Sequence record: PV287714.1
Length of the DNA stretch: 64,000 nt
Strand: one strand, 5' to 3'
From: Escherichia phage HMD-9
Shown: piece after piece, positions 10,065 through 60,869 of the stretch
Layout: each line of letters begins with the position of its first letter
How positions within the stretch are numbered: position 1 is the stretch's first letter
Notes under the pieces: generated by a model
Told to the model about the DNA's origin: nothing
Databases searched by the model: none
The model's input: only the letters and a program-made list of their open reading frames with translations
Program-made: the position numbers and the translations under genes

Positions 10065-10463
10065 TTATACTCTGTTACTGGAAGCCAGTTGTAGTTTTAT
10101 CTGTTCAATATCATCAGGGTTATCGATGACCGAAAAGCGTATTTCTACTATCAGAGTATAATCATCATAAACCGGTATTACATTAACTGCTAATTTATCA
10201 ATACGTGGCTCGTAGTTTCTTACTGCGCTTTCAATGTTACGCTCAACAGTATCAGCAGTAAGAGGAGTCATATTCTCAAAAAGCTGGTCAGATAAATCGC
10301 ATCCAAATTCTGGGTCAAATGGTCTCGACCCTTTTCTGGTTGTAATAATTCCTAAAAGACTATTTTTAATTGACCTTAATCCAAGGGATCTAGAAACATC
10401 TTTGTCCCAATCCATTTTCATTTCTGGGTCAATGTCAGAATAAAGCTTATTAATATTTGCCAT
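10065..10463 (-). CDS. 25: baseplate wedge subunit gp25
   Basis: 132 aa, position. Confidence 0.92.
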   Translation of the reverse strand: MANINKLYSDIDPEMKMDWDKDVSRSLGLRSIKNSLLGIITTRKGSRPFDPEFGCDLSDQLFENMTPLTADTVERNIESAVRNYEPRIDKLAVNVIPVYDDYTLIVEIRFSVIDNPDDIEQIKLQLASSNRV

Positions 10464-11089
10464 TACAATAGCTCAAAGAATTCTTTGAGTCCTCTTATTA
10501 CATGAGCGTGAGATTTTCCACACTCTGGACATTTAATTGGAACAGCCAAATAAACAGTAGGCTTTAAAAGCATATCTTTTATAGCTACAATATCTGACTC
10601 TGTGATGATAGAATATAAATCTTCCAACTCTTTTTCATTCAAGTCTTCAATTGGAATGCTTTCACCGTTAGCATGAATTGTTTCTATACATGATACTATC
10701 ATGTGGGCTATATTTTTATCATCAAAAATTTTAGGGTAATGGAACTTAATTTTAATGTCGCCCAGTGTATACCAGAGGTCTTCTGGTGCATCTATTTGTG
10801 TATGTAATAGATTTATATGGGTTGGTATTTCAGTTCCACAAGTGCACTTCCAGGAGTTTTCGTGATTAACTTCTCCAAGAGAATGCGCCCATAAATGAAT
10901 CAACAGTAGTTCTGATTCTTGGCGGTTTAAATCTTTTGCATTTGTGCATTCTTTGATTAGCTTTTTAACGTTCTCTTCTACTGAACCGTTCTTTTTAGCA
11001 GTAATAAGTTCTAGATATTCTTTAAGAGTAAATGCGCGACAGTTGATTATTTTAGAACCAACTCTCACATCAAATTTGTATTCATACAT
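10463..11089 (-). CDS. 26: baseplate hub subunit gp26
   Basis: 208 aa, position. Confidence 0.9.
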
Positions 11090-11110
11090 ATTTAGCTCCT
11101 TTATTTATCA

Positions 11111-11122
11111 TATTTATAAATA
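11111..11122. promoter_or_regulatory. overlapping divergent late promoters for 26 (-) and 51 (+)
   Basis: TATTTATAAATA contains TATAAATA in both orientations between divergent late genes. Confidence 0.5.
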
Positions 11123-11139
11123 GAATAAAAGGAGCATCT

Positions 11140-17379: not shown

Positions 17380-17383
17380 CAAT

Positions 17384-17401
17384 GGGGACCTTTCGGTCCC
17401 C
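17384..17401. terminator. bidirectional terminator between 54 (+) and minus-strand alt region
   Basis: GGGGACC-TTTC-GGTCCCC followed by T-run. Confidence 0.55.
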
Positions 17402-17407
17402 ATATTT

Positions 17408-17698
17408 TTATTTACGGAATGAAATAAAAGCAGCAACTGAAGCAACTAAACTGTCTTCAATATAAACTTCAATTTTTACCGGAGCTTCTGACTCAAATTT
17501 ACCTGTTACTACACCTTGGAAAATACTTTCAGTCTGTTCTGGCTTTGAAAAATTTTCAGAAGGAAAAATTCCGAACTTTTTATCTGTTCCAAAAATTTTG
17601 ATAAATTCATCATAAACTGCTTCATTAAAAGCATTATCAGCAGGAATAACGCCTTCAACTACAAGTTCTTGACCTAAAAAGCGCAAAGAAGATTTCAT
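17408..17698 (-). CDS. hypothetical protein (T4 alt.-3 position)
   Basis: 96 aa ORF downstream of alt. Confidence 0.7.
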   Translation of the reverse strand: MKSSLRFLGQELVVEGVIPADNAFNEAVYDEFIKIFGTDKKFGIFPSENFSKPEQTESIFQGVVTGKFESEAPVKIEVYIEDSLVASVAAFISFRK

Positions 17699-17705
17699 TT
17701 TGTGT

Positions 17706-17760
17706 TCCTCATGTTATGTCAGTAAGATTACTATAACACAACATGAGGGACTTGTAAACT
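17706..17760 (-). promoter_or_regulatory. early-type promoter plus leader inverted repeat (copy 1 of repeated cassette)
   Basis: Minus strand GTTTACA..TATAGTAAT; inverted repeat CCCTCATGTTGTG/CATAACATGAGG spans SD; near-identical copy at 31232-31290. Confidence 0.45.
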
Positions 17761-17934
17761 ACATTTTGAACTTTTTAGTACGCGTAATAGGCATGCGTCG
17801 ATTTTATACTGTTTCATTGTTTGAAGAGCAGTATCAAAAACAGCATTAATGACACCAATTGGATTTCCACCCATGTTTTTAAGCTTAACTAATGATAGTT
17901 TCTCATTAACACCTATCATTACGATATGCATCAT
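17731..17934 (-). CDS. Alt N-terminal paralogue, distal half (T4 alt.-2-like)
   Basis: MMHIV..MKQYKIDACLLRVLKS aligns to Alt residues ~64-125. Confidence 0.7.
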   Translation of the reverse strand: MMHIVMIGVNEKLSLVKLKNMGGNPIGVINAVFDTALQTMKQYKIDACLLRVLKSSKCSLQVPHVVL

Positions 17935-18116
17935 TTTATCGCCCGGCTTAACGTTTTATTCGTATCACCGCCAGAGGTGTATGTACAAAATCTAAATCCA
18001 GGAAGCACACTTTCTTCACCGGCTTGAATAGCAAAAATTTGAGGTATTTTATGCTTAGGATTTAAGTTAACAACCGGCGCCGAAGCGCCGTCAAATAATT
18101 CTGTAATAAGTTCCAT
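17931..18116 (-). CDS. Alt N-terminal paralogue, proximal half (T4 alt.-1-like)
   Basis: MELITELFD..PGFRFCTYTSGGDTN aligns to Alt residues 1-55; out of frame with the next ORF. Confidence 0.7.
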   Translation of the reverse strand: MELITELFDGASAPVVNLNPKHKIPQIFAIQAGEESVLPGFRFCTYTSGGDTNKTLSRAIK

Positions 18117-20191: not shown

Positions 20192-20199
20192 TATTTATA
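20192..20199 (-). promoter_or_regulatory. late promoter upstream of alt
   Basis: Minus-strand TATAAATA about 20 nt upstream of alt ATG. Confidence 0.45.
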
Positions 20200-24941: not shown

Positions 24942-25028
24942 TTTATTCTCCTTTGTTTGTGTAAGATAATACTATCACAAAGGAACTATACTGTAAACAA
25001 CTTTATGCAATCTTTGGAAAATAAAAAA

Positions 25029-30381: not shown

Positions 30382-30731
30382 TTAGAAAGTTCCTGGATGT
30401 CTTCTGCGAACTTGTTGAAGGAGTTGTTGATTTGTTTTTCAACCAATCCTGGCTTATGAGCCACCACATCCGCCTTCTTTGCGTCTTTGCGCAGTTTTTC
30501 ATTTTCACGCTCAATAGCAGCAATTGCCTCACGATTTTTATTATTCATCGCATCAATATAATTATACTGAATTCGCAAATTATCTAATGCTAAAGCGTTT
30601 TCATTGGCCGTTTTTGTAATTTCAGTAACCGATGTTTCTAATCTTTCTACCTTATTTTTTAAAATAATAGATGTTCCGCCAAATGCTATTACAAGTAATA
30701 GCAATCCAGCTGTAAAATTACTTACATGCAT
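30378..30731 (-). CDS. i-spanin (N-terminal TMD, periplasmic coiled coil), T4 PseT.3-like
   Basis: N-terminal TM helix GLLLLVIAFGGTSIIL then charged helical region; 117 aa. Confidence 0.8.
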   Translation of the reverse strand: MHVSNFTAGLLLLVIAFGGTSIILKNKVERLETSVTEITKTANENALALDNLRIQYNYIDAMNNKNREAIAAIERENEKLRKDAKKADVVAHKPGLVEKQINNSFNKFAEDIQELSK

Positions 30732-31228
30732 AAAGTTTTAATAACCTCTATAATATCGTCTTGAGAAAGACCGTTAATTAAAATATGATGTTCAGCCGGA
30801 GATTTAGAAATTTTAAAGCATGCCTCAACATCTTCTGCCATATCCGATGCGCTACGATTTGGATTACTAATTCCAAGACGATGTTTTCCCGTTAAAGGAT
30901 TAACGATGATATAGCATTTACAATTGTTAATATGAACATTAGGTTGAGTCTGATTAATGAACACATCACAATCATATTTCGCAAGCTGATTTTCTAAAAA
31001 GACTTTCATCTCCTCAACCGCATCAGGAAGCATATCACGGGCTTGCTCAAGACGACGATTTCGATATTCTTTAATGGTCGTTTTCCGCTTGACTTGCTTA
31101 GCTAAATCTTTCTTAAGATCGGTGATATATCCAACTCGACGATTTCCTTTAAATACAGAAATCCCATCTGTAGTATCACCGTATGCTTCAACGACCATTT
31201 CAGTAGTAATAAGCTGTAAATCCATCAT
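30722..31228 (-). CDS. alc: Alc, inhibitor of host transcription
   Basis: 167-168 aa, position upstream of spanins and downstream of rnlA. Confidence 0.82.
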   Translation of the reverse strand: MMDLQLITTEMVVEAYGDTTDGISVFKGNRRVGYITDLKKDLAKQVKRKTTIKEYRNRRLEQARDMLPDAVEEMKVFLENQLAKYDCDVFINQTQPNVHINNCKCYIIVNPLTGKHRLGISNPNRSASDMAEDVEACFKISKSPAEHHILINGLSQDDIIEVIKTLCM

Positions 31229-31231
31229 AAA

Positions 31232-31289
31232 GTCCTCATGTTATGTCAGTAAGACTACTGTAACACAACACGAGGGACTTGTAAACAGC

Positions 31290-31290: not shown

Positions 31291-32877
<1,587 letters not shown>

Positions 32878-37854: not shown

Positions 37855-38108
37855 CATTATGTTCAGATAAGGTCGTTAATCTTATCCCGGAATTATATCC
37901 AGCTGCATGTCACCATACAGATCAGACTATATCTCCATCTTGATGAAGCAAGATGTCTATCGTTTCGAGTCACTTGACCCTACTCCCCAAAGGGATAGTC
38001 GTTAGGCATTTAGTTCAAAAGAACATTTAGCACGGGATTGTCTACTAGAGAGGTTCCCCGTTTAGATAGATTACAAGTATAAGTCACCTTATACTCAGGC
38101 CTCAATTA
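37855..38108 (-). ncRNA. group I self-splicing intron in td, ORF-less (no I-TevI)
   Basis: 5' end TAATTGAGGCCTGAGTATAAGGTGACTTATAC..., 3' end ...CTGAACATAATG; exon 1 ends in U, intron ends in G; 254 nt, no ORF. Confidence 0.9.
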
Positions 38109-38657
38109 ACCCAAGAAAACATCTACACTTCTTTGGTACCATTGTAAATCAAGATAACCATTACGCACATTAAACTGATAGAACATATGACAGGGCGGTA
38201 ATGCCATTTGATTGATTTCAGCTGGATTCCATGCTGAAACGATTTGACGTCGATCAGTTGGTAATTTTTTAATACGATCAATAGTTTCAACTAATTGATC
38301 CACACCACCGAAATCACGCCATTGTTTACCGTATATAGGACCAAGTTCACCACTATGATATCCTAGGTCTTTAGCCTGGTTTTCATAGTTATCGTCCCAA
38401 ATAGTTTTACCTTGAATAAGACTACCATGAGTGCGAAGACGTAAATCATTAACATTGGTAGAACCGGAAATAAACCATAGAAGCTCAGCAATGCAAGCTT
38501 TCCAAGCGAGCTTCTTAGTCGTTACTGCAGGAAAACCTTTAGTTAAATCCCAGCGTAATTTAGTACCGAACAAAGCAATTGTTCCTGTGCCTGTTCGGTC
38601 ATCGGTTTCATAGCCATTTTCAAAAATGTCTTTAATTAAATCTTGGTATTGTTTCAT
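38109..38657 (-). CDS. td: thymidylate synthase, exon 1
   Basis: 183 codons ending QRSVDVFLG; the track's stop is the first 3 nt of the intron. Confidence 0.93.
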
Positions 38658-53310: not shown

Positions 53311-54090
53311 ATGTCAGTAGTTGGTGTTCCTGGTTGGATTGGTAGTTCATCCGTAAATGAAACAGGACAACGATGGATGAGTCAAGCGGCTGGTCAATTA
53401 AGATTAGGTGTTCCTTGCTGGATGAGTCAATTTGCAGGTCGCTCAAGAGAAATTATTCACACACTTGGAGCAGACCATAACTTCAATGGTCAATGGTTCC
53501 GAGATAGATGTTTTGAGGCAGGTAGTACACCTATAGTGTTTAATATCACTGGAGATTTAGTATCATATTCTAAAGATGTTCCTTTATTCTTCATGTACGG
53601 AGATACACCGAATGAATATGTTCAGTTGAATATACATGGCGTAACGATGTATGGTCGTGGCGGGAATGGCGGTAGCAATAGTCCCGGATCGGCTGGGGGT
53701 CATTGTATTCAAAATGATATTGGTGGAAGACTAAGAATTAATAATGGCGGAGCTATTGCAGGCGGCGGTGGCGGTGGCGGCGGCGGTAACTACGGTAGAC
53801 TATCATTTGGTGGTGGTGGTGGTCGCCCATTCGGTGCTGGCGGGTCTTCCTCTCATATGGGTGCTGGTGCAACCGCTGGCACCATTTCCGCTCCGGGTGC
53901 AGGATCTGTCGGTGAGGGGTCTCTTTGGGTATATACAGGCGGGAATGGCGGTGAAGTTGGCTCAGCAGGAGGTAGATGTAATATTCATGGGAACGGTACA
54001 GAATATAACGGTGGTGCTGCTGGTTATGCCGTCATAGGGTCTACACCGACATGGCAAAACGTTGGAGCAATATATGGTCCAAGAGTATAA
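53311..54090 (+). CDS. 38: T2-type tail fibre adhesin gp38 (glycine-rich motifs)
   Basis: 259 aa from MSVVGVPGW; poly-Gly runs; track start 53299 is non-ATG. Confidence 0.88.
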
Positions 54091-60811: not shown

Positions 60812-60839
60812 TTTCTGTTCCTCCGTAGTTGATAGGGTA

Positions 60840-60869
60840 ATAATACCACAGAGGAACAGTCTTGTAAAC
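60840..60869 (-). promoter_or_regulatory. T4 early-type promoter
   Basis: Minus strand GTTTACA - ~18 nt - TATTAT. Confidence 0.4.

Follow-up and report, generated by a model that had tools for sequence, protein, structure and literature searches.

The window analysed here comprises 64,000 nucleotides (nt) of Escherichia phage HMD-9 (record PV287714.1). The phage is a Tequatrovirus (T4-like); over the stretch at 17.4-18.1 kb it shares 99.9% identity with phage Pu-Krd-SF4 and 97.6% with T4. Our study concerns a 53-nt promoter-leader cassette placed in front of the genes alt.-3 and alc. In a pattern search of the window with at most 3 mismatches allowed, the cassette was present exactly twice, both times on the minus strand (17759..17707 and 31286..31234); zero matches were obtained across 100 dinucleotide-preserving shuffles, the chance expectation being none. 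The two copies are identical at 50 of 53 positions, and their similarity extends from the G of GTTTAC to just past GAGGA, between flanks that are unrelated. A preliminary description of the window had proposed two near-identical minus-strand sites, variable at three positions (A/G, T/C, A/G), in front of two unrelated genes. The three differences are as claimed, both sites are real, with coordinates that were off by 1-4 nt, and no similarity was detected between the Alc (PF17527) and Alt.-3 proteins. Of the target genes, alc had been named correctly, but the first copy serves alt.-3, the third open reading frame after alt, and not the frame directly after alt. A genome-wide count, which the description had suggested, gives just the two copies in the window. 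The genes and cassette copies are as follows.

17707..17759, minus strand: cassette copy 1, promoter and leader (exact pattern match; aligned with copy 2 and the T4 copies)
17408..17698, minus strand: alt.-3 coding sequence, 96 amino acids, DUF5498
17731..17934, minus strand: alt.-2, vestige of a second Alt paralog, with a shifted frame that enters the cassette
31234..31286, minus strand: cassette copy 2, filling nearly the whole rnlA-alc spacer (exact pattern match)
30722..31228, minus strand: alc coding sequence, inhibitor of host transcription, PF17527
31290..32414, minus strand: rnlA (gene 63), upstream of copy 2; its TAA stop ends 3 nt 5' of GTTTAC

The gene order at the first locus is alt, alt.-1, alt.-2, alt.-3, with copy 1 directly 5' of alt.-3 and covering, in the window as in T4, the final 9 codons and the TAG stop of alt.-2. 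BLAST gave 999 cassette sites in 501 phage records, two per genome throughout Tequatrovirus, and one partial match outside the genus, in a Mosigvirus.

Each copy carries the early-type -35 and -10 elements that had been proposed for it. The promoter scan scored 10/12 matches for copy 1 (TTTACA, 17-nt spacer, TATAGT) and 9/12 for copy 2 (TTTACA, 17-nt spacer, TACAGT), both having TG before the -10; T4 itself has TATAGT in both copies, from which the alc copy of the window differs. The early promoters (Pe) of T4 are characterized by a GTTTAC -35, a 17-bp spacer, TGn, a -10 and an A/T-rich upstream region (Hinton 2010). The cassette shares the -35 GTTTAC(A), the 17-bp spacer, the TGn and a -10 of the form TAnnnT. 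It departs from the consensus in that its -10 is TATAGT or TACAGT instead of TATAAT, and in a complementarity between spacer and Shine-Dalgarno (SD) sequence that the consensus does not have. The A+T content of the 25 nt 5' of the -35 is 68% for copy 1 and 60% for copy 2, compared to 68%-84% for other promoters of the window, both upstream regions being coding. In the record of phage fPS-65, the homologous site bears the annotation of a predicted early promoter; the T4 GenBank record has no promoter features annotated. The promoter elements are placed as follows.

17753..17758, minus strand: -35 TTTACA of copy 1 (GTTTAC at 17754-17759; promoter scan)
17730..17738, minus strand: extended -10 of copy 1, TGT and TATAGT; contains the alt.-2 TAG stop (17731-17733)
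17723, minus strand: predicted transcription start of copy 1, an A 7 nt past the -10 (position rule)
31280..31285, minus strand: -35 TTTACA of copy 2 (promoter scan)
31257..31265, minus strand: extended -10 of copy 2, TGT and TACAGT
31250, minus strand: predicted transcription start of copy 2 (position rule)

The spacer between -35 and -10 contains an anti-SD tract, CCCUCAUGUUGUGUU. In RNA that enters the cassette from upstream (read-through RNA), minimum free energy (MFE) and centroid structures alike give a 14-bp helix and a 4-bp apical helix, the SD sequence GAGG being buried at the end of the 3' arm. The inverted repeat with the SD in its 3' arm, as first described, is therefore found in both copies, with the arms listed here.

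17735..17748, minus strand: 5' arm of copy 1, in spacer sequence plus the first -10 base; anti-SD CCUC at 17745-17748 (MFE, centroid)
17707..17720, minus strand: 3' arm of copy 1; SD GAGG at 17707-17710; probability (P) of SD pairing with pre-start nucleotides 1.00
31262..31275, minus strand: 5' arm of copy 2; anti-SD CCUC at 31272-31275; outward helix extension AGUCC/GGACU possible
31234..31247, minus strand: 3' arm of copy 2; SD GAGG at 31234-31237; P=1.00

The read-through RNA folds with a free energy (ΔG) of -23.7 kcal/mol in copy 1 and of -28.6 to -30.1 kcal/mol in copy 2, varying with the flank folded, and the z-scores are -5.1 and -4.2, respectively. Sequestration of the SD in read-through RNA was thus borne out by the predicted folds, in that the SD pairs with nucleotides 5' of the predicted start with P=1.00 in both copies. 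The predicted +1 is located in the apical part of the hairpin, between the long arms and 3' of the entire long 5' arm. RNA from this start has only the 3' arm and folds with -1.8 to -2.2 kcal/mol; RNA starting slightly 5' of it gives -1.3 (copy 1) and -1.8 kcal/mol (copy 2). The suggestion that the SD is free in RNA from the embedded promoter is upheld as regards this weak folding of about -2 kcal/mol and needs qualification for alt.-3, the SD of which is not literally free, for it remains paired with the first codons (P=0.98) in a fold of -2.2 kcal/mol that is predicted to be too weak to matter. No Rfam 15 family was found at either copy in a gathering-threshold scan of the whole window. An AUG in the 3' arm opens a frame of 4-5 codons (AUG AGG ... 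UGA; 17712-17695 and 31239-31225, minus strand) with a stop that overlaps the alt.-3 or alc start codon and without an SD of its own; it is probably an incidental by-product of the fixed spacing from SD to AUG.

Based on these features, the cassette is understood as a unit in which an immediate-early promoter of the T4 type is joined to the leader and ribosome-binding site of its gene, and we consider it fairly probable that the anti-SD in the spacer makes translation of alc and alt.-3 dependent on which promoter made the RNA. The spacer is the sole part of a sigma-70 promoter that is nearly free in sequence. Polymerase arriving from upstream (at alc from rnlA and the genes before it, at alt.-3 from the late promoter of alt) would transcribe both arms, and the nascent read-through RNA would fold into the 14+4-bp hairpin that buries GAGG, so that ribosomes would be unable to initiate at either gene. 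Polymerase that initiates at the embedded promoter would begin inside the apical part of the hairpin and deliver the 3' arm only, leaving the leader open and translatable. Both genes would then be translated only while the early promoter fires, despite coverage by middle and late read-through RNA. We infer the start site and the translation block of this scheme from the sequence features, folds, covariation, enrichment and distribution observed. At -22 kcal/mol or stronger, a hairpin that covers the SD is expected to block binding of the 30S subunit, given the precedent of T4 gene e, for which a hairpin over the SD lowers translation ~100-fold (Uzan and Miller 2010). Every prediction of promoter-dependent gating that could be computed was borne out, including those that were able to fail.

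There exist clear analogies to two known kinds of element, which the cassette combines: the T4 ribosome-site hairpins with an internal late promoter, and the early promoter/stem-loop (PeSL) cassettes. In transcripts of T4 e, soc, 49 and I-TevI, -II and -III, the SD and/or AUG lies in a helix of the long RNA, and RNA from an internal promoter, made without the 5' arm, is translated (Uzan and Miller 2010). The cassette is like the e/soc/49/I-TevI hairpins in having its SD paired in the long RNA and an internal promoter whose predicted RNA is devoid of the 5' arm. It differs in that their promoter is late (TATAAATA), whereas that of the cassette is a sigma-70 early promoter with the anti-SD in its -35/-10 spacer, and in that the timing would be reversed, with an early gene silenced on later read-through RNA. 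The hairpin cases of Uzan and Miller (2010) are all late-promoter ones, and alc and alt.-3 are not among them.

Evidence on whether the pairing is under selection comes from the rnlA-alc locus, where many T4-like genera keep the same arrangement and a spacer of ~60 nt. A pattern scan of IMG/VR yielded 11 loci only; spacers were then retrieved by protein anchor, and the search via the Alc protein gave 27 distinct rnlA-alc spacers. Nearly all of the 27 contain GTTTACA-N16/17-TAnnnT, and in 19 an anti-SD directly follows GTTTACA on its 3' side, these spacers spanning Gelderlandvirus, Roskildevirus, Dhakavirus, Winklervirus, Kagamiyamavirus, Klebsiella phages and others. The stems formed between spacer and SD differ in sequence, as in TCTCCGTTT/AAACGGAGA, TCTCCTCAG/CTGAGGAGA, AACCTCTCATTTTT/GAAAATGAGAGGTT and TCCTCATTTCGTTGTG/CACACTAACGAAATGAGGA. 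From a plain MAFFT alignment of 15 alc spacers and the alt.-3 copy of the window, 16 representatives in all, RNAalifold returned a 9-bp helix with compensatory changes in 8 of the 9 pairs. Paired cells amount to 87.7%, compared to 68.6 +/- 2.5 in shuffles, and the covariation score is 0.561, compared to 0.247 in shuffles and 0.07-0.23 with the partners slid; neither value was reached in any of 500 shuffles. The duplex of spacer and leader has a mean energy of -17.4 kcal/mol for cognate and -10.8 kcal/mol for non-cognate combinations. Among the exceptions, some alc spacers (L043, L056, L057) form only a small hairpin within the spacer. Covariation within Tequatrovirus was discarded as uninformative, the cassette being almost invariant there, with few changes in the loop or -10 that keep the pairing or weaken it slightly.

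The same design is encountered at other early promoters. The screen covered T4 positions 1-76.5 kb and the window, and it returned 30 early-type promoters with TGn before a gene; burial was scored when the SD was paired with P>=0.8 with the region -62..-27, and 122 other genes on the same strand served as controls. The SD is paired with the gene's own promoter region in 10 of 30 early-promoter genes and in 3 of 122 others (Fisher p=4e-6), and anti-SD tetramers occur in 10/30 spacers against a background of 5.8% (p=5e-6); independent cases are somewhat fewer than these counts, which include both cassette copies as well as the pair formed by T4 53942 and window 60868. The 3 other genes with a paired SD include I-TevII, a known case of a late promoter in a hairpin, and gene 26, and their recovery validates the screen. 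Gene 26 (10463-11089) is preceded by a hairpin (GCUCCUUUUAU...AUAAAGGAGC; window ~11090-11135, minus strand) with a late promoter TATAAATA in its loop and the SD as its 3' arm, an arrangement that is the classical late-promoter version of the SD gate. In T4, the spacer-SD design is exemplified 5' of regB, denV and motB.2, and dexA likewise belongs to it. In the window, two promoters with stems of their own illustrate it.

60815..60868, minus strand: early promoter with an unrelated stem; spacer CUGUUCCUCUGUGGU pairs with the SD-containing ACUACGGAGGAACAG (ΔG -23.4, P=1.00)
24948..24997, minus strand: early promoter; UUCCUUUGU pairs with ACAAAGGAG (ΔG -18.9, P=1.00)

A near-copy of the former is present at T4 (L090) position 53942, and the two constitute a second repeated promoter-leader family, AGAC(T/C)GTTCCTCTGTGG...ATCAACTACGGAGGAACA(G/C)AAAATG, which precedes different genes (ndd region; nrdC.8/nrdC.9 region). 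Most promoters of the spacer-SD design directly adjoin the upstream gene's stop codon and have no terminator before them, which is where insulation would be needed. Consistent with this, the SD-burying design is commoner without an upstream terminator (10/23) than with one (1/7), the expected direction in numbers that are too small for significance.

The PeSL cassettes introduced above are the closest relatives as regards architecture. They comprise an early promoter with a stem-loop, between -35 and -10 or over the -10, followed by the SD; crossovers have been mapped between -10 and ATG, and the units are repeated in the genome and exchanged between loci (Arbiol 2010; Comeau 2014). The cassette is likewise a stop-to-ATG intergenic unit with early promoter, stem-loop and SD. 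In the T4/PST figure, however, the stems are just upstream of the promoter, whereas the stem of the cassette encloses the -10 and has the SD as 3' arm. The authors' own reading of PeSL is that of a terminator or attenuator and recombination site, and Arbiol 2010 makes no mention of translation. By extension, the stem-loop of the cassette might stop or slow polymerase coming from upstream, so that the gene behind it would be transcribed from its own promoter alone, with the SD overlap secondary. One PeSL stem-loop equalled the rrnB T1 terminator in reducing lacZ expression (Arbiol 2010), and early promoter regions of T4 are often folded: promoter-to-ATG regions were significantly structured (z<-2) in 17/30 cases, several without SD involvement, compared to 16/122 controls. 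We nonetheless regard the attenuator as unlikely. The 3' arm coincides with the SD far above chance and co-varies with the spacer, and neither copy nor the orthologs have a U-tract after the stem, the tails being A-rich. An intrinsic terminator in the strict sense is rejected, as the cassette resembles one in its stable intergenic stem-loop only; its stem, rich in A and U, contains G-U pairs, no U-tract follows, and terminator scans do not call it. The terminator or attenuator property of PeSL is accordingly not reflected in the sequence. A true terminator, where present, looks quite different: in Gaprivervirus (L021:86-157, L032, L033, L058), a GGGG...CCCC stem with T-run is found upstream of alc, overlapping a weak -35, and there is no anti-SD hairpin. 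This terminator over the promoter is a different way to insulate alc. Gaprivervirus phages also have a partial duplicate of alc (alcb).

Promoter-dependent gating presupposes that RNA from upstream reaches the cassettes. Both elements listed here belong to the alt unit.

20192..20199, minus strand: late promoter TATAAATA upstream of alt, candidate source of read-through RNA over copy 1
17382..17403, two-way: intrinsic terminator ending the alt...alt.-3 unit and gene 54 (terminator scan)

The terminator scan found no terminator between the alt late promoter and copy 1, and no terminator-like site on the minus strand from ~34668 to alc; the mapped T4 middle promoters PnrdB and PnrdA are located upstream of rnlA-alc. 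Judged from these signals, read-through across both cassettes appears plausible. Just 5' of rnlA (window 32441-32467, minus strand), ATGCTTC-N12-TACTAT resembles a MotA-dependent middle promoter and is absent from the mapped T4 middle-promoter table. Expression classes for T4 were taken from the supplementary tables of Wolfram-Schauerte 2022.

alt: RNA middle, protein late
alt.-1, alt.-2: RNA middle, protein not detected
alt.-3: RNA early, protein early
rnlA: RNA early, protein late
alc: RNA early, protein early

The step of RNA class at the cassette, from middle (alt.-2) to early (alt.-3), lends indirect support to an active early promoter there. The protein classes of alt.-3 and alc fit a translation limited to the early period, without proving it.

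Several observations weigh against gating. The starts at 17723 and 31250, which correspond to T4 positions ~123.06 kb and ~136.30 kb, are predictions by rule of thumb, and the alc copy of the window has the weaker -10 (TACAGT). The alt.-2 frame of the window and of T4 terminates within the hairpin, with the consequence that ribosomes translating alt.-2 would open it; the Alt.-2 protein has not been detected in T4. This position of the stop would permit translational coupling if alt.-2 is translated, in which the SD of long RNAs is opened solely by ribosomes finishing the upstream gene, and synthesis of Alc and Alt.-3 follows that of RnlA and Alt.-2. Coupling would suit most promoters of the spacer-SD design, where upstream stops are 0-12 nt before TTTAC. 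At alc, however, at least 10 nt separate the stop from the stem, a distance at or past the limit of what a terminating ribosome would cover according to the textbook footprint size, and 15 or more pairs would be left intact. Moreover, RnlA is a late and Alc an early protein, and coupling of alt.-3 would depend on an Alt.-2 protein not detected, which makes this explanation very unlikely in our judgement.

A second group of contrary observations concerns hairpins that do not reach the SD. In three alc orthologs (L038, L045, L054) the -10 hairpin ends just short of it, and ~7 of the 17 structured early regions have a -10 hairpin that ends before it. At window 40203, 27964 and 24605 (minus strand) and T4 20611, 57989 and 73938, strong inverted repeats have the -10 in the loop, end before the SD and lack a U-tract. 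Such repeats are not explained by the gating model; a stem-loop enclosing the -10 may serve some further, broader function to which SD burial is an add-on. A rival reading gives the cassette hairpin a role in stability or processing, the stem protecting the 3' end of the rnlA or alt message after endonuclease cleavage or serving as an RNase III-type site. Stable stems are placed exactly between cistrons, hairpins short of the SD fit 3'-end protection after leader cleavage by RegB or RNase E, and RNA structure protects against RegB (Uzan and Miller 2010). Protection, however, gives no reason for the SD as one arm and the promoter spacer as the other, the SD is GAGG and not the RegB target GGAG, and a bulged helix of just 14+4 bp is a short one for RNase III. 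We therefore hold this role to be quite improbable.

Lastly, sense and antisense strands fold alike, with means of -20.0 and -20.8 kcal/mol, the sense strand being favoured only by the T4-type alc copy (-24.4 vs -15.4 kcal/mol); pairing alone is consequently no proof of a role at the RNA level. Equal folding of the strands would fit a role in DNA (recombination hot spot, cruciform, early-promoter operator) or a functionless relic of recombination, and promoter-leader modules appear to have moved between loci as in the PeSL recombination model. The mode of early-promoter shut-off, to which an operator might contribute, is not understood (Hinton 2010). An operator would conserve sequence, however, and the arms co-vary without conserved sequence beyond the SD; a cruciform would have an unfavourable loop of 12-25 nt, and nothing in a DNA-level role explains the SD as one arm. 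A role of this kind is accordingly given little credence, less than any of the explanations above.

T4 is the reference system for timed phage gene expression, and promoter-dependent gating of translation would have importance in this regard. Anti-SDs in the spacers of about one third of T4 early promoters could constitute a genome-wide system of translational insulation, conserved by covariation across T4-like genera, a generalization that we propose tentatively and consider possible rather than probable. If true, "immediate-early" would be a translational as well as a transcriptional class, and a rule without involvement of proteins would apply: wherever a gene has an early promoter of its own, only RNA from this promoter would be translated. 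Densely packed genes would be insulated from their upstream neighbours, and the insulated genes would fall silent once early promoters are shut off, despite middle and late read-through RNA. The end of early protein synthesis is only partly explained, and early-promoter shut-off is, according to reviews (including Hinton 2010), not understood; gating would complement cleavage by RegB and help to explain why early protein synthesis stops abruptly. Many PeSL stem-loops would be translational gates instead of terminators, and the exchange of entire promoter-leader units would be explained by each carrying its own translational control. A promoter that switches on the ribosome site it sits in would also offer synthetic biology a compact device. 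Should the pairing have no such effect, the cassette is an ordinary duplicated early promoter. In a full-text literature search, the anti-SD in early-promoter spacers, its frequency of about one third and the covariation at alc were not found described, older T4 work being outside that search; priority is therefore uncertain.

As to the origin of the two copies, the alc-type 5' arm at alt.-3 is specific to Tequatrovirus. The alt.-3 orthologs of Dhakavirus, Mosigvirus, Marfavirus, Kanagawavirus and Kagamiyamavirus have an early promoter adjoining the alt stop and an ATGAGGA ribosome site, and their spacers contain a small internal hairpin (ACACCACAAGGATGTGGT) and no anti-SD. Gating is thus not essential for alt.-3, a further point that counts against its importance there. 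Because the anti-SD arm is absent from alt.-3 of these genera, the alt.-3 copy was probably taken from alc: comparison of the sequences suggests, for both the direction of copying and the recombination itself, that the alc version is ancestral and that the alt.-3 spacer was probably overwritten by ectopic recombination in the Tequatrovirus ancestor. Exchange of leaders, with other boundaries, is suggested elsewhere as well, in addition to the two copies per genome. In one Dhakavirus-like genome (L042/L071), the alc and alt.-3 leaders are identical over the 30 nt from past the -10 to the ATG, and the spacers differ. Mosigvirus LF82-41 (L016:2985-3043) has GTTTACA...TATAGTAGTCTTACTGAAACATGAGGAACACAAAATG 5' of an unrelated small open reading frame in the ndd-denB region; its leader is of the alt.-3 type from -10 to ATG, with a different spacer and no 5' arm. 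Exchanges of this sort match what has been reported for PeSL cassettes (Arbiol 2010; Comeau 2014).

The region beside copy 1 is polymorphic as well. In RB68, fPS-65 and ESh17, a full-length second Alt paralog (~685 amino acids) replaces alt.-1/alt.-2, which in the window (17731-18116) are the remains of this second Alt ADP-ribosyltransferase paralog (intact: L003:1450-3507). T4 and the window lack most of the paralog owing to a deletion between two short CTAAAAAGT repeats, by which the frame was shifted into the cassette; the comment in the T4 record speaks only of an "old duplication of the first part of alt". The TAG stop of the intact paralog has its G as the first base of GTTTAC, which indicates that the ancestral cassette was the complete intergenic spacer at both loci.

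Other leaders of the window fall into families as well: the promoters 61593, 57575 and 40928, and likewise 60868 and 40203 (minus strand), share sequence from the -10 to ~+12 (e.g., GGTACTATACAACTATC, TATTATTACCCTATCAACTA), which suggests that entire promoter-leader modules have been shuffled. The sole Rfam match in the window is a group I intron (RF00028, 72.7 bits) at 37903-38118, minus strand, in the position expected for td.

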